Source: Pseudomonadota bacterium
GTDB taxonomy: Bacteria > Bdellovibrionota > FAC87 > UBA2466
Assembly (NCBI GenBank): GCA_043718025.1
Contig: JAYSWN010000098.1
Location: 1 to 30,784 of the forward strand
Length of the DNA: 30,784 nt
Direction: 5' to 3'
A program made the position numbers and the translations under genes. Positions 7,301-27,023 of the stretch are shown one piece after another. The notes beneath the pieces are model-generated. The model saw only the letters and a program-made list of their open reading frames with translations, searched no databases and was not told the origin of the DNA. Every line of letters begins with the position of its first letter. Positions within the stretch are counted from its first letter, which is position 1.

Positions 7301-7686
7301 CAAAATTGGTTGAGGCACTGGCCGATGTCTTTGGTCTTTCACATGAGGAACGTTTGGCCTGCGAAGGTAAGGTCAGCAAGTCTGTTCAATTAGGAATGGA
7401 GACTGTCAAAAAAACGAGAGCTGCCTACTTGGTGCTTCATCCCGAAGAAAAAGACTCACCTAACCTCTCCGAGCCCCTTTTCAGAGAACTCTCCGGAGTT
7501 TTAGAGTTCATGTCCAGAGAACGTTGGACCGCGTACGAACGAGAGCCAAACCAGTCGCCCGTCGGCTGTAAGACTTCTTTGAGTAGCCTGGCGCTTCCCA
7601 AGTCTAGCGGCTCAGCGAAGATCAATGTCGCGTCGGAACCGCCATGGCACAAAGCCCGAACAATGATTGGTCTTCAAAGTATCTAG
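4333..7686 (+). CDS. Large membrane protein with a transglutaminase-like (Cys-His-Asp) domain
   Basis: 1117-aa ORF with an N-terminal signal-like segment and two hydrophobic helices (~5731-5778 and ~6883-6945). Between them lie GQC (Cys 6616-6618), GHRYLVF (His 6745-6747) and ALDAT (Asp 6793-6795), matching the GxC...HAW...DPT layout of bacterial transglutaminase-like cores. Confidence 0.6.
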   Translation: MAHRPSSAGFRLVSALCIFLQLHAPILFAADPTKPAANAPAAIEPLGPSDETIARIFVQQLGADNTKKVMFLSALELTRDTQVGKPDDYALEPEVKKLIEAWLDKFPTKTRKVPAELLALDPNLQAKVDEGHRLMRLHYHEQITGVDKYLSDLPDPLADAERRLLMLMKQARLYREAKISELEAKRMAAEATRRRTGIPPEVSRQLMESKALLTDLEYSIHRHNIKMHGALTEYFRDETRFKTDSKFPPQMLKIWAEDTKKNLKAAQEKSQPYLMAAINVRNLNNDFTVMGGLRLADKIATPAGAQLVMARIRLESDDNKKLAETMAKVEATDSLASQIGTKPYSPDKLLTEIQLQRESHAVKREAYADFYAYNFVRGEIVVPPANDSSSDIKIIRRPWLTALAWYRKSIEQKEAAEGKSQKATDPPKLGNWIYQRLAFGLPTPKITIQSTPKNPTQRRSSAAVLKWAVALGLGLGLAAVGGNYVSPHLPTLVTLPLPSLTQVDSGASSLTFSEAPHIGQNFDLGSSSFDDTPSKNRPRYLLKTGSDNRLEQLPTEFEFSYLNERHKPLTDFSFTPSPSQKSDFQLKTEKELQANQGWFPIATAPGYETRAEIKVGSRVLREGVDYKVYRTVSGGLLAKILSADARANLEVEASFFRKTTPPNAIPEKDLYLSATELARLTKEAEFMEKEGLTVWAKSLRERTQKAQAGEMPLKITDLAEILRKGTYYPEFGSGKIVAAHSDNPWSMLRDLPREEGKLVGQCSVSESALHLLIERIAPRFGSALFTMGVETRDADSIKVGKDFGHRYLVFKLGSYDGIALDATSGEVHPKYAAPAVRSMANGGDFLTLHTLGYSAAGILGLAALGGGAWYLRRGRALRLTPAEELEAKADRENFKAQLDGAVLSPALETEKQAGPTADEIELAALKRRNAKRHAMAASLERLTDRLIIYGDTLGADPGRKDRSLPFPRVAHAARLLREFSLGQSEYRTEAKLVEALADVFGLSHEERLACEGKVSKSVQLGMETVKKTRAAYLVLHPEEKDSPNLSEPLFRELSGVLEFMSRERWTAYEREPNQSPVGCKTSLSSLALPKSSGSAKINVASEPPWHKARTMIGLQSI

Positions 7687-7811
7687 CCACATCCCGCAAT
7701 TCGCCAAACCTTCTAAATGTGCTTTCATCACGCGATTTGACGCGCCGCTCTCTGCCCATAACTCCATCGGGATTGAGTTTTCTTTTCACCCTTGGTCGTT
7801 ACAATATCAAA

Positions 7812-9815
7812 ATGAAATCACTCTCTTCATTTGTGACCTTGTCGCTTTGTTTTCTTTGTCTTGCCTCGGTTGCCAACGCAACCCCCTATCTATTGGGAGC
7901 GGGCAAAGCCGACATTACCGGCCCGCCGGGCGATGTGCTGATGATGGGGTACGTAAAACTCTCCCAGAAGACGGCCGGAATTCACACTCGCCTGTGGGCC
8001 CGCGCCTTTGTGATGGCCGAGGTTCAATCAAACAAGCGCGTAGTCATCGTAGCCAGTGATCTGCTGCAAATTCCTCAGGGCGTAAAGCAGAAGGTGATTG
8101 AAAAGCTGCGCGAGAAATTTGGGGATTTATACTCTGACGAAAATGTTTTGCTGTCTGCCAGCCATACGCACAGTGGACCGGGGGGGTATTCGCACTATCA
8201 ATTGTACAAACTGATCAACCTTGGGTTTTCCGAACAGAATTTTAACGGCGTAGTTGAAGGCGTAGTTCGCGCCATTTCCGCAGCCCACGCCTCCGCCGTA
8301 CCCGGACGCCTAAAGTGGAATCGAGGGGAGTTACGGGGGGCTAGCCGAAACCGCGCGATCGAAGCCTACGTGCTCAATCCCTCTACCGAACGGGATAAGT
8401 ATAGCGACGATACCGACAAAGAAATGACTCTGCTGCGCATGGAGACTACCCGCGGTGAGCCAATTGCCAGTCTCAACTGGTTTGCGGTGCACGCCACGTC
8501 GATTAAAAGTTCAAACCACCTGATCAGCGCCGATAACAAAGGGCTGGCGCAAACTCTTTTCGAAAAGGAGATGCCGGCCGGTTTTATTTCAGCCTTCGCC
8601 AATAGTAACGCCGGAGACGTGACACCAAATATTTCAAAAGATCTAGACGGGGATGATCACTGGGATTGTCCGCTGATTGACGGCTTTCTTTGTGCCGAAT
8701 CATCGGCCCGGCAACAATATGCAACGGCTCGACGGCTGTACGATTCAGCCTACCAGACGGTTAGCGGACCGATCGATTTTCGGCATCAGTATGTGAATTT
8801 TTCGAAGGTAAAAATCTCCGAAGCTTTTTCAGATGGGGTAACCGGGGCCACCACTTGCCCGGCGGCGGTTGGCGTGTCGATGCTCGCTGGAACCAAAGAT
8901 GGCCGCGGCGTTGGTAAGGAGGGGGTGAATTGCAGTAGCGGGGGACCCGGGGTTCAGGCCCTTTGCCTGCGCGATCGCTGTCACGGTGAGAAGCCAATCG
9001 CACTTTCATTGGGTTACCACTCTCCCTACCCATGGACCCCCGAAGTGCTGCCGGTACAAATAGTTCGTCTCGGCGCCTTAGCCATTGTGGCCGTACCTGC
9101 AGAATTTACGACGATGTCGGGGCGGCGCTTACGAAATACCGTGCGCGAAATCTTGAGCAGCATTGGGGTTGAGCACGTGATTCTTGCCGGTTATTCAAAC
9201 GCTTACGCCGGCTACGTGGCCACTCGCGAAGAGTATCAGGGGCAGCAATACGAGGGGGCTTCGACCCACTTTGGCGAATGGACGCTGGCCGCTTACCAAC
9301 AGTCGTTTGCCACCATCGCCCAGGCCATGGCCAATTTTTCTAACCATGATCCGGGCCCCACGCCGCGCGATTTGAGTAGCGTCGCCCAATCCACAAAACC
9401 TAACGTAAGTACTTACGATAACCTCGCCAAGGGCACAAATTTTGGCGACGTTTTAGACGACGCAAAAAGAGTTTATCCCGTCGGTTGCGAGGTGAGAGTT
9501 TCATTCGTCAGCGCCAATCCCAATCGTAACGTGCGGCACGGCGACAGCTACCTCGAACTGCAAAAACTGATTGGCACCGGCTGGAGCACGGTGGCAACCG
9601 ATGATGATTGGAACACCCGTTTTATGTGGAATGCCAATCGCCGCAACATCTCAAGCGCAACGGTGGCCTGGAATATTCCCGCCAGCCTCGACTCCGTCGG
9701 CACCTATCGCTTGGTGCATAGGGGCACGGCAAACTCTCGAGCGCGCGGAAGGCTAGAGTTTCAAGGCACCTCTCAGACTTTTGAGGTGAGCCCTAATACC
9801 GGAAACTGTCCGTAA
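7812..9815 (+). CDS. Neutral/alkaline ceramidase, secreted
   Basis: Motifs G.GKADITGP, GIHTRLWARAF, SASHTHSGPGG, NWFAVHATS, ISADNKG, GDVTPN, EFTTMSGRRLR, YEGAST, and a C-terminal Ig-like domain (TDDDW.T.F.W, G.YRL.H.G). Start moved to the in-frame ATG 7812, which gives a clean signal peptide MKSLSSFVTLSLCFLCLASVANA. Confidence 0.93.
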   Translation: MKSLSSFVTLSLCFLCLASVANATPYLLGAGKADITGPPGDVLMMGYVKLSQKTAGIHTRLWARAFVMAEVQSNKRVVIVASDLLQIPQGVKQKVIEKLREKFGDLYSDENVLLSASHTHSGPGGYSHYQLYKLINLGFSEQNFNGVVEGVVRAISAAHASAVPGRLKWNRGELRGASRNRAIEAYVLNPSTERDKYSDDTDKEMTLLRMETTRGEPIASLNWFAVHATSIKSSNHLISADNKGLAQTLFEKEMPAGFISAFANSNAGDVTPNISKDLDGDDHWDCPLIDGFLCAESSARQQYATARRLYDSAYQTVSGPIDFRHQYVNFSKVKISEAFSDGVTGATTCPAAVGVSMLAGTKDGRGVGKEGVNCSSGGPGVQALCLRDRCHGEKPIALSLGYHSPYPWTPEVLPVQIVRLGALAIVAVPAEFTTMSGRRLRNTVREILSSIGVEHVILAGYSNAYAGYVATREEYQGQQYEGASTHFGEWTLAAYQQSFATIAQAMANFSNHDPGPTPRDLSSVAQSTKPNVSTYDNLAKGTNFGDVLDDAKRVYPVGCEVRVSFVSANPNRNVRHGDSYLELQKLIGTGWSTVATDDDWNTRFMWNANRRNISSATVAWNIPASLDSVGTYRLVHRGTANSRARGRLEFQGTSQTFEVSPNTGNCP

Positions 9816-12146: not shown

Positions 12147-12896
12147 ATGTCTTACCTCGAAAAAGACCACGCCGTGCCGGCTCGTCACAATCCTTACTTA
12201 CACGAGTTGGTCATTGACAAGCTGAAGGCACTAAAGCCAGGGGGCGTACTCGATATTCCCGCGGGCCCCGGGTATTTGGTTCAAGACTTAAATCGGTTTG
12301 GCTTTCAGGCCGTCGCCGGCGAGATTGATGAATCTTTGCATTGCTTCAAAGACGTTTCCTACCGGCGCGTGGACATGACCCGCCCCTTCCCTTTTCCCGA
12401 CGCTAGCTTTGAGTACCTCACGTCTATCGAAGGAATTGAACACATCGAAAACCACTTGGCATTCATTCGTGAAACCGCCCGCGTGCTAAAGCCAGGCGGG
12501 CGTCTTTTTTTGACGACGCCCAATATTCACTCGCTGTCGAGCCGGTTGAATTTTCTCTTTTCTGGTTTTCATGAGATGGCGAAAAAGCCCATTCCCACTG
12601 ACACCGAAAATATTTACTTCGAGCACATTAACCCGATCTCGTTTCCGCAACTTTACTTTTACTGCGAACGCAGCGGGCTCGAGGTGGAACAGCTGCTCAC
12701 TTACCGGAAGAAAAAAGGGGCATGGATGGTTTACTGCCTTTTCTTTCCTTTTATCTGGCTGGCCTGCTACCGAGCCTGCTTCTTGGTTGAAAAAAAACCC
12801 CACCGGCGCGAAAAAAACAAAAAACTATTCCACTTTCTGATCTCACGGGAAAATCAGCTGGGTTCCCACACCGTCGTGGTCGCGAGAAAACGTTAG
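12147..12896 (+). CDS. Class I SAM-dependent methyltransferase (Methyltransf_11/23-like)
   Basis: Motif I VLDIPAGPG, plus FPFPDASFEYLTSIEGIEHI and RVLKPGGRLFLTTPN. Confidence 0.9.
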   Translation: MSYLEKDHAVPARHNPYLHELVIDKLKALKPGGVLDIPAGPGYLVQDLNRFGFQAVAGEIDESLHCFKDVSYRRVDMTRPFPFPDASFEYLTSIEGIEHIENHLAFIRETARVLKPGGRLFLTTPNIHSLSSRLNFLFSGFHEMAKKPIPTDTENIYFEHINPISFPQLYFYCERSGLEVEQLLTYRKKKGAWMVYCLFFPFIWLACYRACFLVEKKPHRREKNKKLFHFLISRENQLGSHTVVVARKR

Positions 12897-12950
12897 GCTT
12901 AGCGGCGAAAGCTGCCCAGCAAACCTTGTAAAAACCTCCAAACCCCACCG

Positions 12951-12979
12951 TTGATTGCCTATGTCATTGTTTTTATAAA
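12951..12979 (+). promoter_or_regulatory. Candidate sigma70 promoter for the 13151-29614 operon
   Basis: TTGATT (12951-12956), 17 bp, TATAAA (12974-12979) in an AT-rich intergenic region. An alternative TTGACG at 13045 overlaps a GTCAA-N7-TTGAC palindrome (13033-13049). Confidence 0.35.
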
Positions 12980-13150
12980 TCTATTTACGGCTCATACCGG
13001 CCGCGGCTTACGTAAAAATATATTTGGACGTTGTCAAAGTTTAATTGACGCGGTGAATCACAAAAGCTAAGAGTCTGACGAAACGGGATATCGAGAAAAA
13101 ATGGGTTGGTTAGTGAAGTTCCCTTTCCCATTTTTAATCAGGGAGCATAA

Positions 13151-16100
13151 TTGAAATCGACCGCGTCAAAGCCGCCACTTCTCAATTGGCCGATTCCCCA
13201 TCTCATCACGGGCGCGCTGCTTCAGCTTTCGCTTTTATTTCCCCGAATCTCGCTGGGCGTTTTTAACGGGGTGGCACCCGGCGGAATGCATCCTGACTTT
13301 CCGGCCGTGTTTAAACTGGTCAATAGCAACGATAAACTTTGTAGCGGTGTCTTCATCAGCCCCACTGCAATGCTCACGGCCGCCCACTGCCTCGTCGATG
13401 ATGTCGACGGCGGACTGCTGCTGCACGGCAGCTCCCATCGTTCTCAATTGGTGGTAGCGCGTCCGGGAATTGTCAGCGAGATGCTTGGCAACAAAGGGAT
13501 CGTAGATAGCAAATCAATTAAATACGATCTGGCCGTAGCTTTTTTTCCGCCCGACGCAGCACGCCAGGCGATGGAAGCCTCTCCCCTAGAACCGATTCTA
13601 AGCGAAGCGATGACCGTCGCCGGTTGGGGAGTCACTGATCCGTCCAAGGAGTCAGCTAACGACAAGACTCTCGCTCTCCACGTCGGCTACACCCTTATTT
13701 CTGGCCGTTCGGACCAAAAACGTTTCTTTCGGGTGTCGAGCAATCGGAGCATAGTCACTAAGGACGGAACCAACGCCTCTCCGTTGGGTGGTGATTCCGG
13801 TGGTCCCCTCATTGACACCGCACTCAAAAAAATCGTGGGCATCTGCTCGGCCACTCGAAAAGACGACAAGGCCGACGTCTTTATTGGGGAATACGTCAGT
13901 CTTTACAGTGCGGAGAGCATTCAACTACTGAAAGAGGCGTCAGCAAAACGGCCGGGCGAGATTCCCGCCGCGTTCATCGATGCTCTCCTCCCCAAGCAAA
14001 AAGTATCATCGTCGGCCCCGGATGAGTCGGTCGTCACCACCGCACCGCAACCCGCGGGATCCGCCCCGCCGGCAGCCACTCCTCCCCCCCTCGTAAGTGG
14101 CCGCCCCAAAGCAAGACTGCGGCCCGACTTTCTTCAGCTCGACACTCGTCTGGCGGCAGAGCTCAGCAAGTTGTCGGGCCTGAACGTCCTTCCCGGTCTG
14201 GTCTACACTGACCAAGCCATCGCTGAATGGCGTCCGGATATCCGCGGCACTCTGCTTTCTGAAGGCTCTGTCGACCCCACCGGTACCGGCGAAGAGAGGG
14301 CGCGAGTCGGTTACTCCGTAGATTTCTCTAAAGAGCTTTGGCTCATCACCCAAAACAACTTGCGCTATCTCCTCTGGCGGCAAGACGGAACGCAGAACTT
14401 GCTCGTCGAGTCACTCCGTCATTTCATTCCGGTCAAAGACGGCGTGGTCTATTTCGATGCTGAGTGGATGGCGCATTTTCGCTCGCTAGACGGCAGCAAA
14501 AATAATGCCTACAAACTCAGGGCTTACCTTCATACATTCGATCCCAAATCGGGGCCGACGCCGATCTACCATTACGATTCCACTGAGCAGAAGCTCATCG
14601 TAGCCAATTGGAGTTTCCATCCTACCGCTCCGGTTCCCGATGACGCCCCTCAGTTTGAACCCTTCGAACTCTCCCTCATTGATTTTGTTGCCACCGTTGA
14701 AGACGACAAGCTTCTGCAATTGCATCGCAACTTGAAATGGCCGTTTTTTTTGCGGCCCAATGGCCTCTTTCAGATCGATGAGCCCACTAAGACTTTAAAT
14801 TTCCAGGAGCTAAACTGGCAGACCGGCGAACTGGCCCCTTCTAAAGCCGTACTTTCGTTAGAAGGAAAATATGAAGTTAAGCAGCGCAATGGGGAGTTCA
14901 CCCTTATGCACATCAACGCCGCCGGCCCCCCTACGCCGCTGTTGGTTGACTCGAACGGTCGCTTCGTGCGGCAGACCGGCCGCCAAGATCGTTTCTCTCC
15001 GGTCACCGATCGTACCGATCGTGCGATTGCTGATCTACCCATCAGCGCGGCCGTGATTGACCTGCTCGCACTGCCGCGCAAGGCGCCTCTCTATTCTAGC
15101 TCTCGCGCGAATGCCGCGATGGCAACGGCCCTGGGTGCTTCAAGAAAGACCTGGTCGATTCTTGTGTACGAAGATGGGCAACGCCCCAACGACGTCGTCG
15201 ACGGCTTCGCCCAAGTCATCGCCAATGGAATCCTACGGGTTTCACCTAGCCTTAAGCAGCTGGACCGGGTTTGGCGAATTCCGGGAGACACTGCGTTTAA
15301 CACTAAGGACGCTGAAGATCGGGATGAGACATTTCGCTCTCTCTTCGAAGCGCTCGACGGCACCCAGGCGATGGGTGTTTTTGCCGACTTTCCCACCAAA
15401 CGCTCAGAGGCCATCGGCACCGTCTCAGAAACAGTTGAAAATTTTTGGCACTACTTTGAGACCTGTATCAATGAAGGGACCTGCCGAATTCTCACTACGA
15501 TGCGAGCCCCCGTTTTTTTGGAATTGGCGCGCCTCTTCCCCAATATTGTTAATCAGGCCAACGTCTTTGAACTCCCTCGTTTGGAAAAGGACGAACGCAA
15601 ACAGGTTGCCCAAGTTTTAAGGCGCAACTTGGAACAGGAGTACGCAAAAGTGCTCAGCAACGCCGCGTTTGACAAGGCCCTCGGTTTTGGCGCCGCGGCA
15701 ACCAAAGGGTTACAATCTCCCGATCGCGAAGAAGGTCTATTAAGAGAGTTATTTGATTGGTTTGAACAGACGTCTCCCAATTCATTAGAAATCGCCAGCG
15801 CTTCAGTTGACCGATTTATAGAGCGCGGCAAAACGGATGGATCATCCAAAAAAATAGATATTGAAGGGCTCAGAAAATACCTCAAAGGCAAAATGGTCGG
15901 CCACAGCGACGTAGTCGACAGCATCTGCAATCAGTTAAAACCTCTGGAAAATGGAACTCACTTTGGTCCCATGCCGATCTATTTCACGTTGGTAGGAACT
16001 CCCGGAGTGGGAAAATCGTGGATTGCTGGTCTCATCGCCAACTATCTCACCGGAGAGGGTTCAAACTTATTAATCGATTTTAAGAGTTTCAAGGGATTTG

Positions 16101-16921
16101 ACGCAAACAATCCGGATAAGATTTCCACCGAGCTAAAAAGATCGCCCAATCGCCTTCACGTTGTCACCTTTGATGATGTCGACCAGGCCCACATGAGCGC
16201 TATGGATAAAATTCGCGGGATTTTTACCGACGGGTTCTACGCCAAAGAGACGGCCGATGAGGTGCCTTTCACCAACACCATCGTCATTCTCACCGCAAAC
16301 TGGGGTCAAAACCTAATCCTCCAGGATACAAATTTCGCCAGTGGGGACTTCACCGAAAGTCTGCGTCGCGAAATCGTATTTGATGATTCTGCCACTATAA
16401 ACGTCGACCCCGACCCCACCGGAAAAATCAGCAAGCGAGTCTGGAGTGCCCTGGCGGGAAAACTCTACATCATGAAGCCATTTTCCGAACCAGAACTGCT
16501 TCAATTGGCATTCAAATTTGCTGAGGATCGCCAAGTGGCAATTGCCGGCAGAAGTGGTGGTAAAGAACTTAGCATCCACCCATTAACCCTATTGAAATTT
16601 GTATCCCAGCGGCGTGCCGACACCGCCGGCGCAAGGGACATACAAAACGCATTAGATTTGCAACTCTTTCCCGCTTACGAAAACGCCATTCAGAAACGCG
16701 GGGTTACTAGAGTTGTATTGGTTCCCAACGAAGACAAGATCGTTGCGGTAACCAATCTAGATAAAAGCTTCAGTTATTGGAAAAAGAGCCAGGAGAACGC
16801 GAAGGCAAAAATTATCGGCAATGGGCCCAACCAAGGGCCCAAATGGTATCTGGAGAACGCCGCAAAATGGCATTTAGATGACTGGAAACTCATCGTGACC
16901 CCTCCCAAAGGTAAAAAATGA
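13151..16921 (+). CDS. Trypsin-like (S1) serine protease fused to a Clp/Hsp100-type AAA+ module (degenerate D1, D2 with Walker A)
   Basis: SD GGGAG then TTG start and a hydrophobic leader. Catalytic triad: TAAHC (His 13385-13387), YDLAV, GGDSGGP (Ser 13796-13798). Then a Pro/Ala linker, a beta-rich region and a relic D1 (WSILVYEDGQRPNDVVDGFAQ...GTCRILTT). D2 has MVGHSDVV, GTPGVGKS (15995-16018), VVTFDDVDQAH, FTNTIVILTAN and GARDI. Confidence 0.85.
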   Translation: MKSTASKPPLLNWPIPHLITGALLQLSLLFPRISLGVFNGVAPGGMHPDFPAVFKLVNSNDKLCSGVFISPTAMLTAAHCLVDDVDGGLLLHGSSHRSQLVVARPGIVSEMLGNKGIVDSKSIKYDLAVAFFPPDAARQAMEASPLEPILSEAMTVAGWGVTDPSKESANDKTLALHVGYTLISGRSDQKRFFRVSSNRSIVTKDGTNASPLGGDSGGPLIDTALKKIVGICSATRKDDKADVFIGEYVSLYSAESIQLLKEASAKRPGEIPAAFIDALLPKQKVSSSAPDESVVTTAPQPAGSAPPAATPPPLVSGRPKARLRPDFLQLDTRLAAELSKLSGLNVLPGLVYTDQAIAEWRPDIRGTLLSEGSVDPTGTGEERARVGYSVDFSKELWLITQNNLRYLLWRQDGTQNLLVESLRHFIPVKDGVVYFDAEWMAHFRSLDGSKNNAYKLRAYLHTFDPKSGPTPIYHYDSTEQKLIVANWSFHPTAPVPDDAPQFEPFELSLIDFVATVEDDKLLQLHRNLKWPFFLRPNGLFQIDEPTKTLNFQELNWQTGELAPSKAVLSLEGKYEVKQRNGEFTLMHINAAGPPTPLLVDSNGRFVRQTGRQDRFSPVTDRTDRAIADLPISAAVIDLLALPRKAPLYSSSRANAAMATALGASRKTWSILVYEDGQRPNDVVDGFAQVIANGILRVSPSLKQLDRVWRIPGDTAFNTKDAEDRDETFRSLFEALDGTQAMGVFADFPTKRSEAIGTVSETVENFWHYFETCINEGTCRILTTMRAPVFLELARLFPNIVNQANVFELPRLEKDERKQVAQVLRRNLEQEYAKVLSNAAFDKALGFGAAATKGLQSPDREEGLLRELFDWFEQTSPNSLEIASASVDRFIERGKTDGSSKKIDIEGLRKYLKGKMVGHSDVVDSICNQLKPLENGTHFGPMPIYFTLVGTPGVGKSWIAGLIANYLTGEGSNLLIDFKSFKGFDANNPDKISTELKRSPNRLHVVTFDDVDQAHMSAMDKIRGIFTDGFYAKETADEVPFTNTIVILTANWGQNLILQDTNFASGDFTESLRREIVFDDSATINVDPDPTGKISKRVWSALAGKLYIMKPFSEPELLQLAFKFAEDRQVAIAGRSGGKELSIHPLTLLKFVSQRRADTAGARDIQNALDLQLFPAYENAIQKRGVTRVVLVPNEDKIVAVTNLDKSFSYWKKSQENAKAKIIGNGPNQGPKWYLENAAKWHLDDWKLIVTPPKGKK

Positions 16922-17706
16922 AAATGCTTGCTCACAAACTAACGCTAGTCGCTTTGGGTTTAGCCTTTCACGCCACCGCCCACGAAAACGTCCTCTTCCT
17001 GGTGGACGTCTCCGGAAGCATGGCCGCGCTGTTACCCAACATCGCCACTACCCTTCGAGAGCAGGTCGTCAGTCCGCTACGTCAACAGTCTGGCCAGGGG
17101 CTCATCAGCTTTTCTGGTTGTGGCCGAGGTTTCGTCAATTATTTGGTTCCACTGGCCAAAAACAATGGACAGCAGATGAAAGAGGGCGCCGGAAAACTGC
17201 GGCCCGATGGCGCAACTGACATCGTCGCACCGCTTGAAGTGGCCAGGGAGACCATCCTCAAACAGCTACACGATACACACGAGTGCACCAATATCATCCT
17301 TTTTACCGACAATGAGGACACCTGTGGCAACGGCAATAAACACCACGATGTGCTTAGGGAAATTCAATCTCTTTGTGCGAACTACTCGGTGGATTTCAAT
17401 GTGGATGTGATCACCTCTAGCGTAAATGAAGAGGTTCTCCTTTTCCTCGATGGCATCACCGATATCACCGGCGGAAAAATTTACGACGCGGCGACGGTGG
17501 ACGAAATTGCGGCGCGAATCAAAACGATTGTCGAAGGGTACAAACGCAAGAAGGTAGGAACCCCGATGACGTCCAAAGCGACCACCCCCGAAAAGAAAGT
17601 GGTCGCCGATAAACCGGTTCAAGCGGTGCCCCGTCCCCAACTCAAAAAACAGCCTGCAAGAAGCGGGCAAGATGACAAAAAAGAAAAAAAAGAAGGTGGA
17701 CCATGA
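16918..17706 (+). CDS. Exported vWA-domain protein (MIDAS intact, YwmD-like subgroup)
   Basis: Signal peptide ending AFHATA. MIDAS DVSGS (17005-17019), T in PDGATD, D in IILFTDNEDTCG. Lys/Pro-rich C-tail. ATGA overlap with the upstream stop. Confidence 0.88.
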   Translation: MKMLAHKLTLVALGLAFHATAHENVLFLVDVSGSMAALLPNIATTLREQVVSPLRQQSGQGLISFSGCGRGFVNYLVPLAKNNGQQMKEGAGKLRPDGATDIVAPLEVARETILKQLHDTHECTNIILFTDNEDTCGNGNKHHDVLREIQSLCANYSVDFNVDVITSSVNEEVLLFLDGITDITGGKIYDAATVDEIAARIKTIVEGYKRKKVGTPMTSKATTPEKKVVADKPVQAVPRPQLKKQPARSGQDDKKEKKEGGP

Positions 17707-20306
17707 ACAAGATTTCTATCGTTTTCTCTACACTATTAGTATTCTGCACCCTGTCTCTAGCGGACACGACCGAACGCACCGAGCTAGAAGTAGATCGCAA
17801 TGCCGCGGGTCAGATCACCGCGATTCGCTGGAAAAGCGATGTCGCCCTAAGTGAAGCGGTGACCCCCGAGCTGCTTGAAATCATCACCGCGGATCCGCAA
17901 GCACTCTATGTTTCACCCAATTTCTCTCACGCCTTAGTCAAGCTCCCCTTTGGCACCGAGGGAGCCCTTATGGGTGACGTAGTGCTTTTGCGTCCCGGGG
18001 TGATAACTGGCCTTCCTAAACCAGGGGAAGGCATTATTGGGCAGTCGCCGACCGCTATCTCACTCAATCGATGGGGCTTTTACTATACCCGCAACTCGGG
18101 CTCTGTATTCACAGTGGAACACTACGATTTGGTAAGAAGTGCTTCCGAGATTCTGCAGACACTTGATGCCGGTCAGGTGGGTACCCTACACAATATCAAG
18201 TTGTCAGAAGACGTCGTAACTATCATTAGTGGTGGCACGAGCATCGACTACCGTCCCAATAAACGCCGAGCGCAGTCCACCCTAATTTTTAGCGCGCTGG
18301 CCCGCGATAACATCGACACCATCGAAGGCAGTTTCGGCGGCATCAATCTCACCAAAAGGGCGCTAGATGGCCAGTTGGACCCGGATGAGTCAGAGAGCGC
18401 TTTGGCGATTCAGATGGCTGAGAATATTCACCGCAGCCGAACGCAAAGAAGCGTTCTGCTCTGGGGAATACCCGGTAGCGATACCCAAGGGGTCGTCCAT
18501 CTCTTTGCCCAACGGGTAGCCGAAGCCAAAGAGGGAGATAAGCACTTTGGCTGGTTTGCGGGTTGGAGAGTCTATCAGATGAGTTGGGCCAATCTTAACA
18601 CCGAGGGGTATGTCGACGTCTCCTCTAACAAAACGATCAAACTCATCAACGCCACAAGGCAGAGAAAGGTGATTCTCTTTTTCGACCAAGCGGAACAGCT
18701 GATCGGGCTTGGCTCCAACAAAGACTATCGAAGCGACGTGGCGAGTGTTCTCTTAGGCTCAATGAAGTCAGGCGAAGTTATTATAATTGGCGCCACCACT
18801 TCGGATGGAATGCCCACCATGCGGTCTAATTCCGAAATGTTCAGTAGATTTTTTGAAATTCCACTTCCTGAAGCAAAGGGCGACCGTCTCTTGGCAAAAC
18901 TTCGTCTATCTGCCGACCGAAAAAGGGACGAATCCCGCGTAAACTTTTCGGATGAGTCACTTAAGAAGATCGTGGCCGTCAGCGATAAATATCTGAGCGA
19001 CAGAGGACAGCCGGAAAAGAGTCTGGCCGGCATCGAGGCACTTATCACTGAGTTCACACCACTTCGGCACCTAGACCCCGCCATTGACCCGGAAACCGTC
19101 CCGTTTAGAGACATCACCGAAAACAATGTAATGTCTTGGATATCAAAGGCAGCCAGAATCGGCTCACTTTCCATTGACGGGTCCGAAGCCCTCGCTAAGT
19201 TCGTACTCACTCAGGAGTACAGCGATGCGATGAACCGGCGAATGTCTGGTCAAAACGGCGCCAAAGAGGCCGTGCGCGATGCTCTGCTCGCCATTGCCAA
19301 GGGTAATAAAAAAACTAACTCTCAAGGCAAGGAAGTCGGCATTGAGACTCTGCTCATGGTGGGTCCGTCCGGATCGGGGAAGTCCTACATTCACCAAGTT
19401 TTATCGAAAGTGTTGGCAGAAAAAGACATTCTCTTGCCCTATGAAGAGCCAATGGAAGGCTCCGTTCTCATTGATGGCGATCAGGCCGTTCGTACCCTAC
19501 TGGGAGCGGCGCCTGGATACATTGGATTCGATCCCTCTGGTGAGGGCGGCCTTTTATACCAAAAGGTAAAACGTTCGCCTCAAGCCATTTTGGTGCTTGA
19601 GGAGTTCGACAAGGTCCATCCGTCTATTGACCTGACTCTCTATTCCTTTTTGGACGAGGGGAAAGTCCAAAACGTCACCGGCAAGGTGGCCTGGTTTACC
19701 CGTGGTCTATTCATTCTCACGGCGAATTTCGGTGTCACCGGCTCCGGAGGTTCCACAAACCGCAACGGCGCGGCCGGGCCCGCTAAGCCTGCCCAGTGCG
19801 ACTACATCGATCGCTGGGATCGACACCATCTTTTTCCCGTCGGGGATCCCCTTCATATAGATGACCCGATGGTGGCTAATTGGACCGAAGAGGGTCTCAG
19901 AGCGGCCCTTTTCACTTGCTTGCAAACGAACCAACTTCTTAACCCCCAAATACTTGGCCGAATCGGTCGTTCCAATCTAGTCATTTTTCATCACCTCACG
20001 CGCGCCGACATTCAAACCATTCGTGATCAAGAGATCGCCAAATTGGCGAAAGAATACCTTCAGACTCATGACGCTAAACTGGAATTCACTCCCGAATTTC
20101 TACAATGGCTATTTGATTTCGCGTGGGGCGTCGACGGAATGCTCACCTTTAACTCAGGTGCCCGCGGAATCGTTGACGCGGTGAAAGCAGAAGTCAGCAA
20201 ACCGCTTCTTAAATTTGCGGCCCTTGGCGGTGACCCAGTGAAAAGCAAAACTTGGAAAATTGAACTCACTACAAACCCAGATCAGGCAAAAGTCTCGGTG
20301 AAGTAA
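17703..20306 (+). CDS. Second Clp/Hsp100-type AAA+ protein with signal peptide (degenerate D1, near-canonical D2)
   Basis: Signal peptide MNKISIVFSTLLVFCTLSLA. D1 relic: NLTKRALDGQLDP, LLWGIPGSDT (Walker A Lys lost), ILFFDQ (DE>DQ), IIGATT, SRFFEI, KYLSDRGQPEK. D2: MSGQNGAK, GPSGSGKS (19362-19385), pore loop GAAPGYIG, VLEEFDKVHP, ILTAN, PQILGRI, GARG. ATGA overlap. Confidence 0.88.
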   Translation: MNKISIVFSTLLVFCTLSLADTTERTELEVDRNAAGQITAIRWKSDVALSEAVTPELLEIITADPQALYVSPNFSHALVKLPFGTEGALMGDVVLLRPGVITGLPKPGEGIIGQSPTAISLNRWGFYYTRNSGSVFTVEHYDLVRSASEILQTLDAGQVGTLHNIKLSEDVVTIISGGTSIDYRPNKRRAQSTLIFSALARDNIDTIEGSFGGINLTKRALDGQLDPDESESALAIQMAENIHRSRTQRSVLLWGIPGSDTQGVVHLFAQRVAEAKEGDKHFGWFAGWRVYQMSWANLNTEGYVDVSSNKTIKLINATRQRKVILFFDQAEQLIGLGSNKDYRSDVASVLLGSMKSGEVIIIGATTSDGMPTMRSNSEMFSRFFEIPLPEAKGDRLLAKLRLSADRKRDESRVNFSDESLKKIVAVSDKYLSDRGQPEKSLAGIEALITEFTPLRHLDPAIDPETVPFRDITENNVMSWISKAARIGSLSIDGSEALAKFVLTQEYSDAMNRRMSGQNGAKEAVRDALLAIAKGNKKTNSQGKEVGIETLLMVGPSGSGKSYIHQVLSKVLAEKDILLPYEEPMEGSVLIDGDQAVRTLLGAAPGYIGFDPSGEGGLLYQKVKRSPQAILVLEEFDKVHPSIDLTLYSFLDEGKVQNVTGKVAWFTRGLFILTANFGVTGSGGSTNRNGAAGPAKPAQCDYIDRWDRHHLFPVGDPLHIDDPMVANWTEEGLRAALFTCLQTNQLLNPQILGRIGRSNLVIFHHLTRADIQTIRDQEIAKLAKEYLQTHDAKLEFTPEFLQWLFDFAWGVDGMLTFNSGARGIVDAVKAEVSKPLLKFAALGGDPVKSKTWKIELTTNPDQAKVSVK

Positions 20307-20329
20307 GTAGTTCGGCAATGGAGTAGATC

Positions 20330-22378
20330 GTGAATCGTATTAATAGAAATAAAATCCCAACGGCATTTATCCTCGGACTTGCCTTTTATCTTCCGGTCTA
20401 CGGAATTGACGAAACCAAGGCCCCCCCGGCGACCCTCGCCCAATTGGCGCAGGCGGATCAAAAACAAGACGCGGCTCGAACGGCAATTCTTCAACAACAA
20501 AAAACGGAGCTTCTGGCCATCGACGAACGGCGAACTAAAATTGGCACCGACTTAGACAATGAATTGAAGAAACTGCAGACCGCACGCGAGGAGCTTCGGG
20601 CCACGCATGGCAAGCGCCAGATTGAAAGTGCCGCAAAGATGGCGGCGTTAGACGAAAAGTTCCAAGCGCAGTTGGTTCTGTTGAGAAACAAGCGCAGCCA
20701 AGTCTCCACGGCTAACGCCGCCAAGATTGTTGAACTAGACAAAGAGCTTGCGGTCATTCAGGAACAAGCAAGGGTGCGGTACACCGATGAGGTTAGTAAA
20801 TCGCTAAAGGCTCACGACGAAAAAAGAAAAGGGCAAGAGGCCGCGCGGGCCGCCAGTGAAGCGACGGTCGAAGACGAGAGAGTCGCCGCTTTAAACGCCT
20901 ACTTTGAGGCACTAGCCGCCCACGAAGTTGCCACCCAAGCTGAAACCCAGACGCTGGATCAGGCTAAAAGTGACCAGCTAAGCGAACACGCCACAAAAAC
21001 GGCGACGTTAACCGATCTATACAACGAGCAGTTGGCCAACCTCGCCGCCGAGCGGGCAAAAATCGCCCAAACCTCGTCTGACAAACTATACAGCCTACTG
21101 CAGGTGACCGATCGAACTACGCCGGTGGTGGTTGGTCCGCTGCAGGGAAGCAAAGGGCACTCCCTTTCCGATCTCGCCGAGGGGCGGAAAATAGACATGG
21201 TATTTACCTACGCAGGAGTAACGCTACCCACGACCGATCCCATGACCACAACTCTCTCTAAGTCGATCTCCAACGTTGTCGCCGGAATTTATGTTGAGGG
21301 CTTCTCATTTTCTGAGGACGGTGAAATTCTCTTTTTGGCTAAGCCGCTCACCATTGCTCTTCACTACACGGTTGGCGGCATAAAGCTCAGCTTGCCAACG
21401 GCCGCTGAATTGAAAATGCAGCAGACCATTTTGGCGGCCCTTATTCAAAATCTCTACCGCGTTCCGGAGGAAAGCTTTACTGGCTTAAAATATGAGCCCG
21501 TAGATACGGCGGGAAAAAAGGTTACCTACCGCGATAATCCACGCCTTACCGCCGTAATACGCGCGTTGGTAACAAGAAATAGTGGTGATCTCACGGGGGT
21601 TACTCAGGTCGACGATCAGACCTTTGCCATCGACGGAAAAGCGTTTCGCGTTAATTGGTATTTTACTGACGCCAATAATGCTGTTCAACCCGTGTCCCTC
21701 AAACCAAAGACCGAACAAGATGAAATACAGGCGCGATGGGTAAGGGTCATGAAACGATCCTTCACCCCCATCTCAGTCCCGGCAAAAGTCAGAGCCAAGC
21801 TTGCGACCGCTGCAAGCGTCAGTGGGCCGGCCACCATAAAACTCGCCACACTATTGAAGGCGCCCGACCGCTGTAAGGGGTTAATTTTTGTCCAAAATGG
21901 AACGGGAGAGATTTTGGTGGCCCGGGCCCAGGATAAAGCAATGTTATTCACAGCGATTGGCGTGGACTCTCTAGGGGGGGTCGCCTGCGCCGCAGATTCA
22001 ATTGCCGTTGTTGCCAAAGCAATACGGCGCACCGAACTTCTCAAATTTGATATCAATCAAACCCCGGGAATAGACATTCCCGCCGCTGACTTGGTGGTAA
22101 CCGACTCCCAAGTTGAATCGCGCGGAAACATTGCCACGCTATTCGTTATTCACCAGAACATTCTTAAGATCGCCGTGGTCTCAACGGAGGGAACCTTTAA
22201 AAAGGTTCAAGCCCTCGGCACTGAAAAGGGTAGCTTTCGCGCCTGGTCGGCAGACGAAAAAGGCGTTTGGAATACTCAATTCACTTTCGCCATTCCCTAT
22301 GATGCTTCTGTCGTGAATCCAGACGTTGGCTCAGTGCCTCCGGCCGAGTCCGAACTCACCGTCGCGGAGGGTAAGTGA
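20330..22378 (+). CDS. Exported protein with long N-terminal coiled coil and beta-rich C-terminal region
   Basis: SD GGAG then GTG, hydrophobic leader (TAFILGLAFYLPVYG), about 220 aa of A/E/K/Q/L heptad-like sequence, then a mixed/beta region. No family recognised. Confidence 0.75.
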   Translation: MNRINRNKIPTAFILGLAFYLPVYGIDETKAPPATLAQLAQADQKQDAARTAILQQQKTELLAIDERRTKIGTDLDNELKKLQTAREELRATHGKRQIESAAKMAALDEKFQAQLVLLRNKRSQVSTANAAKIVELDKELAVIQEQARVRYTDEVSKSLKAHDEKRKGQEAARAASEATVEDERVAALNAYFEALAAHEVATQAETQTLDQAKSDQLSEHATKTATLTDLYNEQLANLAAERAKIAQTSSDKLYSLLQVTDRTTPVVVGPLQGSKGHSLSDLAEGRKIDMVFTYAGVTLPTTDPMTTTLSKSISNVVAGIYVEGFSFSEDGEILFLAKPLTIALHYTVGGIKLSLPTAAELKMQQTILAALIQNLYRVPEESFTGLKYEPVDTAGKKVTYRDNPRLTAVIRALVTRNSGDLTGVTQVDDQTFAIDGKAFRVNWYFTDANNAVQPVSLKPKTEQDEIQARWVRVMKRSFTPISVPAKVRAKLATAASVSGPATIKLATLLKAPDRCKGLIFVQNGTGEILVARAQDKAMLFTAIGVDSLGGVACAADSIAVVAKAIRRTELLKFDINQTPGIDIPAADLVVTDSQVESRGNIATLFVIHQNILKIAVVSTEGTFKKVQALGTEKGSFRAWSADEKGVWNTQFTFAIPYDASVVNPDVGSVPPAESELTVAEGK

Positions 22379-23400
22379 GGCCCTTCTTTTTCACAATCGC
22401 CTCCCTGTTATTTTCCAATTCCTTAGTGGGATTTGAGATGGCGCCTTTAAAAGGGACGTTGAGTGAATTCCCTCTTCTCACGCGAAGTAAAAATCAACCG
22501 GCCATGGCGGTTTTAGCCGGCAATTCTCTTATTTTTACCGAGGGCACAAATCTCGACAGCGACAACCCTGAAGACTGCCCGGCGACCGATCTTTATCGAT
22601 ACGATCTCGCCCAAAAAACCGAGACCAGAATCGCCGAAATTAGCTGCGTCATCAATTTGCTATCAGATGGCAAAGTTGCTTACGTGATTACCAAAGATGC
22701 TCAGAAGGTTCTATCCGTCGGCCGAATTACCGATGAAAAGACGTTGGAAATTGAACCTGAAGGTTCACTCGCCCGCATGATCGCAAAGGTGGCCTTTAAA
22801 CGCTCGATCCTCAAGCTACCCAAAGGCAGCGAACTAAAGCAGCTGAACTACGTGATCCGCGACAACGAGCTGAACGCGGTGTTTAAAACCGACACCCATC
22901 TTTTTCTCGACGCCGTGATTTTCGACCAAGCCTCCAAACAGCCGGTCTTGCCGTTCGAGCTTAAAAACGGCGTTGGCTCTTCAGTTGGGTTGAGTGATGG
23001 AAAAATTCTCTACGCCCTTACCGCCGGCGATGGTGCCTGGTTGCGCGTGGTGGAAATGGGGGCCAATGGGGCTAGCGCCACTTTGGGCCATCCACGCCCC
23101 CTCGCCAAGGACTGGACAAAGGCCGGAGTTTTAGAATGGGCCGTGAGAAAACCCCGTTTTCTGGTCGGAGTTCCCGATGGCTTTCTCGTAGCCGATCGCA
23201 CCCCCGAGGTGTTTTCGGAAGCCACCGCGATCTCCTGGTATTGCAGCACCGAAAAACAATTCTACCGACTTAATATCCCCGACCAAGATGTTGGGGGGTT
23301 GAGCTACGTACACGGTGGCGTGTTGGTTTCTAAGCCTATGGCCGGGTCGATCGTTTGGTACGGTAATAAAAGTCCCTTTCAGACTGAGGTGAAAAAGTGA
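22375..23400 (+). CDS. Exported hypothetical protein, possibly beta-propeller
   Basis: GTGA overlap with the upstream stop and a leader MRPFFFTIASLLFSNSLVG. Repeated short strands (SLIFTE, LYRYDL, KVAYVI, KILYAL, GFLVAD, GVLVS, SIVWY) are typical of propeller blades. Confidence 0.65.
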   Translation: MRPFFFTIASLLFSNSLVGFEMAPLKGTLSEFPLLTRSKNQPAMAVLAGNSLIFTEGTNLDSDNPEDCPATDLYRYDLAQKTETRIAEISCVINLLSDGKVAYVITKDAQKVLSVGRITDEKTLEIEPEGSLARMIAKVAFKRSILKLPKGSELKQLNYVIRDNELNAVFKTDTHLFLDAVIFDQASKQPVLPFELKNGVGSSVGLSDGKILYALTAGDGAWLRVVEMGANGASATLGHPRPLAKDWTKAGVLEWAVRKPRFLVGVPDGFLVADRTPEVFSEATAISWYCSTEKQFYRLNIPDQDVGGLSYVHGGVLVSKPMAGSIVWYGNKSPFQTEVKK

Positions 23401-24497
23401 AGAAAAATTCCAGTATTTTGTTTTGTAGTTTCATTCTGTTGGTCCTCGCGCTGATGGGAAGCTGGGCTTCTTTTTCCCACGCTCAAGAGCACAGCGATGA
23501 CACCGCGGCGATTTTAATCACCGAGGCCAGCCTCACCAAGTTTGGAAAAGGAAACGTGGTGGGCTACTTCCCAAAGGCGTTAATTTCGCGAGATCCCACT
23601 CGCCGCAAAAAAGGCTACTTTATTTTTGACGACAGTGCAGAAAGTTTTGAGAAGACCCAAATCCCCCTACAAATCACATTTGAATGGGGCACTAAAACCC
23701 TTGAGCAAAGCTCCAAAGATTGGAAACTGGGGACTCCGGAAACCTTTACCTACGCCTTAGCCACCGACGTGTTTCTCGCTAAATTACGCCTTCTGTTGGC
23801 GGAGAATTCAAAAGTGTTAGCGCCCGACTTTCTGCCCACCGAGCCTTTTACCGGTTTAAAATCGATTGCCAAGGAGACTCCGGTCAGTCGCTACCTCTTA
23901 AAGAAGGGTTCTGAAACCTCATATCGCATGGAGATAGGAGATCGCACTCTGCTGGACGAAAAACACAAGAGCATCAGCCTTCCCGAGGTCGTAAACCAAA
24001 TGGCTTTGTACCAGCAACATTTTAAAACGGTAAATTTACAGTTGCAGATTTTTAAATTGCGGCCCGGTGAACGCCCAAATAACCCTCGACTGGTGCAAGG
24101 CGTAGCGTTGGTTCGGCACCACCATCCCGCCATGCCGGAGGGACGCGTAGTGATCAATTATGGCGCCACCCGCCCCCCGTGGAGCATGGCCACCAACCGA
24201 CTGGAATTTGCCGGCGAGAGTGTTGATTTCGAATTTCCTGCCTCCACATTCATAGAAAATGTAGTTGCGCCATTGCTGGTAGAGAACGGCAAGATCCCGC
24301 TCAAATTCGAATGCGTTATCGGTGATTTTGAAGAGGAGACGGCCTGTAAGAAGAGCAAAGACGGATCAATTACGGTGAAAGGAAATTTAGCACCGGGCGG
24401 ATCACTAGCTTTCATTATCGAGCGGGCCGCCAATGCCAATGAGTCGATTGACGCGTACCGGGATCTTTACCGGGTCGATATTCACACGGCCAAGTAG
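23397..24497 (+). CDS. Exported hypothetical protein
   Basis: GTGA overlap, SD GAGG, signal peptide MKKNSSILFCSFILLVLALMGSWASFSHA. No family recognised. Confidence 0.72.
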   Translation: MKKNSSILFCSFILLVLALMGSWASFSHAQEHSDDTAAILITEASLTKFGKGNVVGYFPKALISRDPTRRKKGYFIFDDSAESFEKTQIPLQITFEWGTKTLEQSSKDWKLGTPETFTYALATDVFLAKLRLLLAENSKVLAPDFLPTEPFTGLKSIAKETPVSRYLLKKGSETSYRMEIGDRTLLDEKHKSISLPEVVNQMALYQQHFKTVNLQLQIFKLRPGERPNNPRLVQGVALVRHHHPAMPEGRVVINYGATRPPWSMATNRLEFAGESVDFEFPASTFIENVVAPLLVENGKIPLKFECVIGDFEEETACKKSKDGSITVKGNLAPGGSLAFIIERAANANESIDAYRDLYRVDIHTAK

Positions 24498-24525
24498 AAA
24501 TCTGCGTCGGAAGGGAATAGGGAAC

Positions 24526-25563
24526 GTGAAGTTATTTTTAATTAGCATCCTGCTTTTGGCCGGTCGACCCAACTTTGCCTTTTCAGAACAAGCGGCGGGC
24601 GTTCCGGGCGACGATTTTGAATCGGATGAAGGTTTTTTAAACGAAAAACTGAAAGAAGTCCGCCTTAGTCTCATTAGTGCCAATACCATATCGATCAATG
24701 GCGTGCAGGTGCCTCCGATGGCCACCCACTACTTTTACGACCAAACCTCGGTTCGCTACGTAGGGGGGCCGGCAGGAACAAGCTCATGGCCGATTTCTCC
24801 TTTTTTTGTAGACTCCCAAACCATTTTCTCTTTACCCGAAAATGGTTTCACGACGAAGTACGGAAACTTTTTGGGTAAGGCGGCGGCAGGAGTTTTTGCC
24901 TACTTCGAATTACTTGACGAGCCGATTGGGATTCAATCGTTTGACAGTCCAGTAGTAGAAGTCCCCACCCTGAGCGAAGCCCAAAAAAAAGAGGCAAACC
25001 AAGATCGTTTCACAACCATCAAGGCTCTATTTGATAACTCAAAGTTGCCAAATCTTTCGACGACAGCCGTTAATTCCGTTTGGGTGGGACGCTGCGCCTT
25101 TAAATCGACTCCCGATGTAGAAACCGGCGCGCTTTTTTCGTTAACCGCGGACGGGACAATGGCTAAACCATTTCTCTACACTGCGGCACGCGCGATGGAT
25201 TTGATCAACGGTAGTGTGGCTGCTCAGGCCGATAGATTCGAGCAGATGGGCGAAAGTTCCATCGCGGCGGCCACTCAACTTCAAACTCAAACCGGGCTTA
25301 AATATAGTCCGCTGAGCGAACGCCCCCTGCAGACTCGTCCATTGGAACTCAATTCCCTCTTCTTTGATTACAAAAAAGAATTTGAACGGGGAATGGTGCG
25401 GATGGGATATCGCCTGCGAGATTATACCGGCCCGACCGGAAGGCGCGTGGTTGTTTTAGAAGGTTACTCTCCTTTTAAAGAAGGCGCTTCGTTCACGCAG
25501 AAAAGAGTTAGTTATCTCGAACCACTTCAATACTGCTACTTCAGCCAGCATTGGAAATGGTAG
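24526..25563 (+). CDS. Exported paralogue 1 of the four-gene 'KALFD...WxGRC...YCYF' family
   Basis: In-frame GTG at 24526 after GGGAATAGGGAA gives signal peptide MKLFLISILLLAGRPNFAFS and avoids overlap with the upstream gene. Shared C-terminal domain from ~24847. Confidence 0.78.
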   Translation: MKLFLISILLLAGRPNFAFSEQAAGVPGDDFESDEGFLNEKLKEVRLSLISANTISINGVQVPPMATHYFYDQTSVRYVGGPAGTSSWPISPFFVDSQTIFSLPENGFTTKYGNFLGKAAAGVFAYFELLDEPIGIQSFDSPVVEVPTLSEAQKKEANQDRFTTIKALFDNSKLPNLSTTAVNSVWVGRCAFKSTPDVETGALFSLTADGTMAKPFLYTAARAMDLINGSVAAQADRFEQMGESSIAAATQLQTQTGLKYSPLSERPLQTRPLELNSLFFDYKKEFERGMVRMGYRLRDYTGPTGRRVVVLEGYSPFKEGASFTQKRVSYLEPLQYCYFSQHWKW

Positions 25564-25591
25564 TGCGTTTTTTTTAATGGAGGAGCTCTCG

Positions 25592-27016: not shown

Positions 27017-27023
27017 TTGAGGC

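Follow-up and report, generated by a model that had tools for sequence, protein, structure and literature searches.

A trypsin-fold protease fused to a degenerate Clp module heads an operon of predicted exported proteins

In the 30,784-nucleotide stretch of DNA analysed here (contig JAYSWN010000098.1 of assembly GCA_043718025.1; hereafter the window), a gene at positions 13151..16921 of the forward strand encodes P0001 (Clp1-T), in which an S1 serine protease stands N-terminal to a Clp-type double AAA+ module that has no ClpP-docking loop. This is the new architecture that a first-pass annotation of the sequence had proposed. The same annotation had read the protein as an ATP-dependent protease whose trypsin domain replaces ClpP, a view that the motifs do not support: D1 is dead, and in the five aligned fusions D2 carries DD at Walker B and has no pore loop. 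Judged in this way, P0001 is not a self-contained ATP-dependent protease. We tentatively favour, at slightly less than even weight, a scaffold subunit that carries the protease within an exported machine composed of two Clp proteins, a vWA protein and the protease; this machine would work where it encounters ATP, possibly inside prey. The domains listed on first pass were correct, but the leader, the dead D1, the C772/C778 pair, the loss of the D2 pore loop and the operon had been overlooked. The gene is divided as follows.

13151..16921 (+), fusion gene P0001 (Clp1-T), open reading frame of 1256 amino acids with a TTG start (orthologues)
13140..13145 (+), AGGGAG, resembling a ribosome-binding site, 5 nt before the TTG start of P0001 (sequence)
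13151..13258 (+), residues 1-36, leader resembling a Sec-type signal peptide, predicted cut ISLG/VFNG (hydrophobicity test)
13259..13945 (+), residues 37 to ~265, S1 trypsin-fold serine protease (Pfam, PDB sequence matches, alignment)
13988..14110 (+), flexible linker rich in Pro, Ala, Ser and Thr (sequence, alignment of fusions)
14123..14986 (+), open, partial beta-propeller-like domain (AlphaFold2 [AF2], Foldseek, structure alignment)
15020..15826 (+), D1, fold of Clp nucleotide-binding domain 1 (NBD1), catalytically dead by its motifs, with C772/C778 (structure match, alignment)
15839..16777 (+), D2, fold of Clp NBD2, with K955 in Walker A (GTPGVGKS) and FDDVD at Walker B (structure match, alignment)

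The fusion gene and its Clp half

The fusion is real. Among 61 related genomes searched, G001 and G002 carry full-length orthologues with 65-66% identity; a 50%-cluster library contributed P0004 and P0005 (44% identity), and a protease-region search among long proteins P0164 (59%). The six full-length fusions, which come from different assemblies, share the same junction at pairwise identities of 39-73%. In two of four sequencing runs, a single contig covered positions 12500-21000 without differences; the window may itself derive from these two runs, which are therefore no independent confirmation. An assembly chimera or a read-through of two genes was ruled out by the six full-length copies with identical junction and the contigs across the gene, and its residual probability is negligible. 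Promoter and terminator scans were at chance level (7 versus 11.0 and 22 versus 24.1, respectively).

Pfam assigned residues 49-241 of P0001 to Trypsin (45.7 bits, cut-off 20.6, E = 9e-12) and residues 947-1050 to AAA, the latter weakly and barely above cut-off; AAA_2, the family named on first pass, stayed below its own. The best PDB sequence matches were to ClpC/ClpB D2 and to trypsin-family proteases. The AF2 model of residues 321-1235 (predicted local distance difference test [pLDDT] 82, 24-row alignment) matched whole ClpB, ClpC and ClpA chains in Foldseek with E = 3e-26 over ~615 columns. Using VIA-align, D1 was superimposed on NBD1 of ClpB (4hse) with Z 19.2 and a root-mean-square deviation (rmsd) of 3.1 over 253 aligned residues, and D2 on CLPB/Skd3 (7xbk) with Z 23.4 and an rmsd of 3.2 over 294. 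The Clp-like nature of the C-terminal half, earlier assigned by eye, is borne out by these matches. In agreement with the first-pass annotation, Pfam gave no match to a Clp N-domain or middle domain in P0001, and the IGF/IGL loop after D2 sensor 1 is absent in P0001 and in the second Clp of the operon (P0002), where the genome's own ClpA has IGI. NCBIfam scores reached at most 30.6 bits for P0001 and 137.4 bits for P0002, compared with cut-offs of 885-1900 for ClpA, ClpB, ClpV and ClpG.

Catalytic motifs were counted in an alignment of 29 rows of Clp1, the family formed by P0001 and its relatives (five fusions included), with the ClpA and ClpB of the genome. P0001 has LVYEDGQRPN at the Walker A and ADFP at the Walker B position of D1, and D1 of all five fusions is without the Walker A Lys, the Walker B Glu and either of the two arginines of ClpA D1. 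The D1 Walker A Lys is found in 6 of the 29 proteins, none of them a fusion and none pairing it with DE at Walker B. In D2, the Walker A motif GxxxxGK[ST] is retained in 29/29; DD replaces DE at Walker B in 24/29, including all five fusions, and the PPGYVG pore loop is absent throughout (29/29). Sensor 1 of the P0001 D2 is intact. Its sensor 2 reads GAR, and the remaining four fusions, P0164 and the metagenome locus L076 have GAS at this place. By the established Clp mechanism, a ring without pore loops cannot thread substrate; with no such loop in its D2, P0001 should therefore not thread. By these motifs, D1 and D2 of P0001 are a pseudo-motor in which D1 is dead.

A role as housekeeping ClpP replacement was rejected because the genome retains ClpP and a canonical ClpA (together with ClpB). 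The protease is also placed differently, at the entry face on a floppy linker and not in a chamber under D2. The other proposal made on first pass, that the protease processes substrates or partners at the ring's entry face, still stands, although the predicted setting, a complex of several exported proteins, had not been foreseen.

The Pro/Ala-rich linker noticed earlier is present and varies from 45 to 61 residues among the aligned fusions (own cut). The beta-rich region is likewise present, and it is the N-terminal domain in protease-less Clp1 relatives. When folded alone it gave an AF2 pLDDT of 86.6; the Foldseek rows shown were beta-propeller-type chains with template modelling scores of ~0.3, and the best structure alignment had a middling Z of 8.4. 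In view of this loose likeness, it is labelled, with modest confidence, as an open or partial beta-propeller-like fold.

Mean identity over five fusions was 48% for the protease, 48% for the beta region, 51% for D1 and 61% for D2, the highest value of the four. A quick tree of D2 was built from 51 rows (five of the six fusions placed, P0017 not included); in it the five fusions formed one clade with a Shimodaira-Hasegawa-like approximate likelihood-ratio (SH-aLRT) support of 100, nested among protease-less relatives; Clp1, Clp2 and canonical Clps fell apart as separate groups. The single clade inside protease-less relatives indicates one derived event, and the protease fusion thus appears to have arisen once, onto an older beta-D1-D2 scaffold.

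Protease domain, leader and operon

The triad H79, D126 and S216, in TAAHC, DxA and GDSG motifs, is invariant in the five aligned fusions, as are G214, D215 and the C64/C80 pair. Together with the Pfam score, this upholds the complete triad described on first pass, and the S1 domain looks catalytically competent. Residue 210, which we equate with trypsin position 189, the floor of the S1 pocket, varies among the five fusions (S, V, V, I and A). Trypsin-type Lys/Arg specificity was rejected, as none of them has Asp at this position; the specificity should therefore differ from that of trypsin.

S1 proteases need a free N-terminus of the IVGG type, the Ile or Val of which pairs with the Asp before the catalytic Ser. 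Residue 37 is V or I in 5/5 aligned fusions, and in all six fusions the hydrophobic leader ends in a small residue that is immediately followed by [VI][FW]NG. The VFNG of P0001 appears to be the counterpart of the activating N-terminus, and removal of the signal peptide would free V37, arming the protease only after export. Leaders were evaluated by our own hydrophobicity heuristic, in which the first 50 residues are compared with all internal windows. The N-terminal 50 residues exceeded every internal window in 21 of 31 Clp1 and 9 of 12 Clp2 proteins, and in none of seven cytoplasmic Clp controls. A second hydrophobic segment was absent in 29/29 Clp1 proteins. Independently of the leaders, D1 has C772 and C778 where ClpB has PALARGEL; of 20 rows, 17 contain the complete pair and three lack it entirely, and neither cysteine ever occurs singly, as expected for a predicted disulfide inside the AAA+ fold. 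We infer that P0001, the vWA protein, Clp2 and the remaining operon products are Sec-exported.

P0001 heads an operon of ten co-directional genes extending from 13151 to 29614, in which five of the nine junctions are four-base stop/start overlaps and each gene product carries a hydrophobic leader. The genes following P0001 are:

16918..17706 (+), predicted exported vWA protein, start overlapping the P0001 stop; metal-ion-dependent adhesion site (MIDAS) D30, S32, S34, T100, D131; C68/C136
17703..20306 (+), Clp2 (P0002), 867 amino acids, second predicted exported Clp with beta-rich N-domain, dead D1 and intact D2 (Pfam, PDB matches, alignment)
20330..22378 (+), signal-peptide protein with a long helical, coiled-coil-like N-terminal half; same genus only, among the loci compared
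22375..23400 (+), signal-peptide protein of no known family, invariant C68/C91; conserved in operons of families f1/f2
23397..24497 (+), signal-peptide protein of no known family; conserved in operons, with a stand-alone trypsin next to it in several relatives
24433-25563, 25577-27016, 27024-28262 and 28259-29614 (+), four paralogous signal-peptide genes; two copies each in G001 and G002

The MIDAS motif of the vWA protein (DxSxS, T, D) is complete in 8/8 homologues, in which C68/C136 are also invariant. D1 of the window's Clp2 is dead, and only 3 of 12 homologues have an intact Walker A motif there. Its D2 has K560, E634 (Walker B EE), a GYIG pore loop, R753 and GAR; Walker A, the Walker B Glu and the arginine finger are found in 12/12 homologues, and a Y[IV]G loop in 9/12. 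On these motifs, the intact motor of the locus is D2 of Clp2, two genes downstream of P0001.

In the 22375 family, the C68/C91 pair is invariant in 10/10 proteins; no match was obtained in Pfam or in a PDB sequence search, and there was no profile likeness to the beta region of Clp1. The 23397-family protein had no usable atlas match, and the PDB gave one chance-level row. The four paralogues share a C-terminal domain of no known family and have variable Gln/Arg/Ser-rich N-termini, which also match long operon proteins in G012, G017, G027 and G034, possibly through low-complexity bias. Upstream in the window are a molybdopterin oxidoreductase fused to cytochrome c domains (2599-4212), a 1117-residue signal-peptide protein with no Pfam match (4333-7686) and a neutral ceramidase (7644-9815), none of them tied to the operon in the relatives examined.

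Relatives, range and host

The order Clp1-vWA-Clp2 was found at 11 loci in nine genomes, and additionally at the metagenome locus L076. Carriers include G001 and G002 (both split over contigs), G004, G012, G030, G034, G282 (twice) and G175 (twice). The operon-carrying genomes are kin, and counts over them are consequently not independent. A stand-alone trypsin-family gene above the Pfam cut-off accompanies 8/8 unfused loci with contiguous DNA, next to Clp2 in five of them, and is also present in the broken operon of G011. Where the protease is fused, no separate trypsin gene was detected, neither in the window (local trypsin hidden Markov model [HMM]) nor in G001 and G002 on the contigs that carry the downstream part of the operon, with small gaps at the contig breaks. 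A 69-row trypsin tree puts the fused domains together with their operonic counterparts from G011, G012 and G030 (SH-aLRT 96), the operonic trypsins as a whole being scattered over two to three places. The fused protease likely, though not firmly, descends from the operon's own trypsin, for which the mutual exclusion of fused and free protease is a stronger sign than the tree grouping.

Several relatives depart from this arrangement. In one locus of G175 (C1, L059:5797-9051), vWA and Clp2 form a single protein with the vWA domain at its N-terminal end, which makes it the second Rosetta-type fusion of the system; in the other (C10, L058:6853-10476), as in P0024, Clp1 carries an N-terminal FGE-sulfatase-like domain in the trypsin's slot. 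Clp2 of G282:C30 (L057:5089-8724) has three AAA+ domains with a second D2-like copy. A 23397-family protein of G004 (L062:523-2037) bears a C-terminal PDZ domain and has a trypsin gene next to it, an HtrA-like pairing in trans. Loci in G027 (L025:8251-15649), G033 (L060:8488-14519) and G017 (L061) encode a Clp1 relative of ~800 amino acids with no AAA Pfam match, followed by 22375-family, 23397-family and trypsin-like genes, with no adjoining vWA or Clp2 gene. A membrane-protein gene without NCBIfam match directly follows the operon in G282:C11 (L056:16216-17487), as does a gene for an MFS transporter in G034 (L063:11374-12768); either might serve nucleotide supply. Two further Clp-related genes were seen in G000. 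One (C29:21523-23643, +) encodes a ClpC-like protein of 707 residues that starts with a leader resembling a signal peptide and retains every catalytic motif in its two domains, and no vWA or second Clp was seen near it; the other (C36:1451-6115, +) encodes a 1555-residue signal-peptide protein having one or more Clp-D2-like domains with intact Walker A and a GYLG loop.

The system is rare and patchy in the phylum. A vWA profile found 11 of 401 genomes at E ≤ 1e-22, nine being the operon carriers and two weak; a Clp1 profile, with two candidates scored per genome, found 45 of 301 at E ≤ 1e-30 and 12 at E < 1e-40, the others looking like ordinary Clps. In four families of this phylum, the genes of the module have stayed side by side. 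DNA-pattern scans, an insensitive method, gave no locus for the Clp1 part and one for Clp2, and in metagenomes three loci with one true member. An atlas search with residues 320-1256 of P0001 returned generic AAA clusters only, and a PADLOC scan of eight operon proteins generic D2 matches only (2/8). The genome has 11 copies of DUF4423, the expansion of which we take to be a feature of Bdellovibrionota; the host is probably a predator of this type, predation being assumed.

Known systems and the weighing of readings

With ClpAP, ClpCP, ClpB and Hsp104, P0001 shares the tandem NBD1-NBD2 folds, and its best sequence matches are to ClpC/ClpB D2. It differs from these by its predicted signal peptide, the missing N-domain, middle domain and IGF/IGL loop, the dead D1, the D2 without pore loop and a best score of 30.6 bits against an NCBIfam cut-off of 885; its protease is of the S1 type and faces the entry of the ring, and the operon also encodes a second Clp and a vWA protein. 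In Lon and FtsH, the protease is C-terminal and builds a chamber beneath a single, active ring. They likewise hold protease and AAA+ module on one chain, whereas here an S1 protease is N-terminal, on a flexible linker and part of the non-motor subunit. HSP101 of the Plasmodium PTEX is a ClpB-type protein that works after export, as a fully active homo-hexamer on a membrane pore. Its structure (6e10) matches both AAA+ domains of P0001 (Z 21.3), but in the present system a protease fusion and a vWA protein are present and no pore gene was identified.

The MoxR-vWA ternary conflict systems of the iSTAND and FtsH types, as described in the main text of Kaur et al. 2020 (PMC7159879), combine an active AAA+ protein, a MIDAS vWA protein and a third AAA+ protein that is wholly or half inactive; this inactive NTPase bears N-terminal trypsin-like peptidases. 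A trypsin fused to an NTPase is, on this account, a known theme. The logic of active AAA+, MIDAS vWA and inactive AAA+ with N-terminal peptidase is shared; here the inactive member is Clp-derived and not of the STAND type, both ATPases belong to the Clp clade without a MoxR family match, and every component has a predicted signal peptide, whereas that main text uses neither 'signal peptide' nor 'secreted'. The hosts, too, lie outside the multicellular phyla named there, although its supplements may list further neighbourhoods. Torsin with LAP1/LULL1 provides a degenerate AAA+ partner in the secretory lumen, with a proposed alternating ring, according to the account in PMC4358337. TorsinA matches D2 of P0001 with Z 18.1, and in both cases a Clp-related AAA+ protein is paired with a degenerate one. 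In the Torsin pair the inactive partner contributes an arginine finger, and unfused Clp1 proteins mostly keep the D2 finger arginine. Torsin differs in being eukaryotic, with a single AAA+ domain, a membrane-bound partner and an ATP-supplied lumen, and has neither vWA protein nor protease; P0001 itself is without the finger arginine. By these analogies, the present system would work most like the MoxR-vWA ternary systems and Torsin-LAP1, yet it belongs neither to the former nor to ClpA, ClpB and ClpC, and apparently not to the latter. Neither a trypsin on a Clp scaffold nor an all-exported Clp pair was found in the searchable literature, outside which most subscription papers lie.

In the favoured reading, all subunits would leave the cytoplasm via Sec, and cleavage of the leader would expose V37 and switch the protease on only after export. 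Clp1-T and Clp2 may then form a mixed double-AAA+ ring, as their complementary motifs suggest, in which only D2 of Clp2 would hydrolyse ATP and grip substrate by its pore loop, Clp1 contributing surface to the ring and a D2 site that binds nucleotide but is weak. By analogy with the vWA partners of MoxR ATPases, the MIDAS vWA protein could catch an acidic, extended peptide and link the substrate to the motor, and the S1 protease at the entry face of the ring would cut motor-loosened substrate or partner subunits. The machine would run where ATP is met outside its own cytoplasm, speculatively in or on prey or lysed cells as the most plausible places. The N-domain of Clp2 might, as an idea only, complete the open propeller of Clp1. 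A complex prediction of Clp1 (beta region and D1) with Clp2 (N-domain and D1) scored 0.00 in two runs, made without folded controls, and counts neither for nor against the pairing.

A number of observations weigh against this reading. The main difficulty is the supply of ATP, which the periplasm is held to lack; of 34 genomes of the family, six yielded a TLC-type nucleotide transporter, none of them among the six carriers G000, G001, G002, G004, G012 and G030. Having no arginine at or beside the D2 finger position, P0001 is without the usual means of activating an adjacent Clp2 site; in the other four fusions the D2 arginine is shifted one place earlier, and most unfused Clp1 proteins keep it in position. 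Six of 31 Clp1 leaders, two of them from fusions, missed p ≤ 0.05, the h-region of P0001 is weak (KD10 1.89), and 45% of the 1106 open reading frames of at least 400 amino acids in the genome have a strongly hydrophobic N-terminal segment. The three losses of C772/C778 all sit in one subclade of the D2 tree and thus represent few events. In a second trypsin tree (39 rows, 22 long or distant rows dropped), the grouping of fused and operonic proteases reached only 55/83, within a 95/95 clade of ten that includes two unlinked proteins, and by HMM score 46 unlinked proteins rank above the operonic trypsins. Finally, G027 and G033 have D1-only loci with neither Clp2 nor vWA close by.

Among the alternatives, a nucleotide-gated switch is unlikely but carries the most weight: the Clp pair would sense ATP or ADP leaking from damaged or prey cells and oligomerise on binding it, thereby clustering or unmasking the tethered protease, which would then cut a partner or target without any threading. 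It would account for a Walker A motif kept in D2 of 29/29 Clp1 proteins while the hydrolysis motifs erode (DD in 24/29) and for D2 being the most conserved fusion domain (61%), and it parallels the cytoplasmic MoxR-vWA ternary systems with a trypsin-fused inactive AAA+ protein, as they are presented in the main text of PMC7159879. A pure switch would, however, not need the pore loop, Walker B Glu and arginine finger that Clp2 retains (9-12/12), and the mature N-terminus, with no propeptide, looks already active after export. Still less probable is a maturation protease that only trims operon subunits or its own linker while an exported structure is assembled, uncoupled from the ATPase, with the fusion securing stoichiometry. 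The long low-complexity linker fits it, the two to three tree places of the operonic trypsins suggest that different S1 genes fill the slot, and the FGE-sulfatase-like domain of G175:C10 and P0024 marks the slot as an accessory position; against this, a protease gene is kept in 8/8 unfused loci, next to Clp2 in five, and its fusion to a ring subunit persists down to 39% identity.

The ATP problem would vanish if the leaders were uncleaved membrane anchors, or were not read, and the machine stood on the cytoplasmic side. The leader of P0001 is indeed atypical, and one gene caller begins the reading frame at M46 (P0003) instead of at the TTG. This start would, however, delete the activating residue, and the small residue before the conserved [VI][FW]NG in 6/6 fusions, the paired cysteines of D1, the vWA protein and the 22375 family, and the lack of a second hydrophobic segment in 29/29 Clp1 proteins also speak against a cytoplasmic location, which we regard as improbable. 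Slightly more improbable again is the model of the first-pass annotation, in which a P0001 homo-hexamer unfolds with ATP and degrades with its own trypsin domains in place of ClpP. Both AAA+ folds are complete, the triad is intact, and D2 has its Walker A, sensor 1 and, in P0001, sensor 2. On the other side stand the dead D1, a D2 with DD, no pore loop and, in P0001, no arginine finger, the loss of sensor 2 in the other five fusions, and an intact Clp2 always two genes on. The exported scaffold thus described has a more ambitious form, namely an undescribed class of exported ATP-dependent protease with mixed Clp ring, vWA adaptor, export-armed chymotrypsin-fold protease and prey-derived ATP; this we consider possible but doubtful.

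To our knowledge, bacterial Clp unfoldases are cytoplasmic and paired with ClpP, and ATP is thought to be absent beyond the inner membrane. For a system whose export, assembly and activity are predicted, two paralogous Clps whose broken and intact motifs complement each other, together with a vWA protein and a serine protease, all apparently built for export, would be unusual among ATP-driven machines. The fusion places protease and Clp scaffold on one chain, a Rosetta-stone link, and provides a direct handle on the system through three adjacent genes. If the reading is true, the gene would represent the first coupling of an S1 protease to a Clp unfoldase, and the system a bacterial AAA+ machine working outside the cytoplasm.

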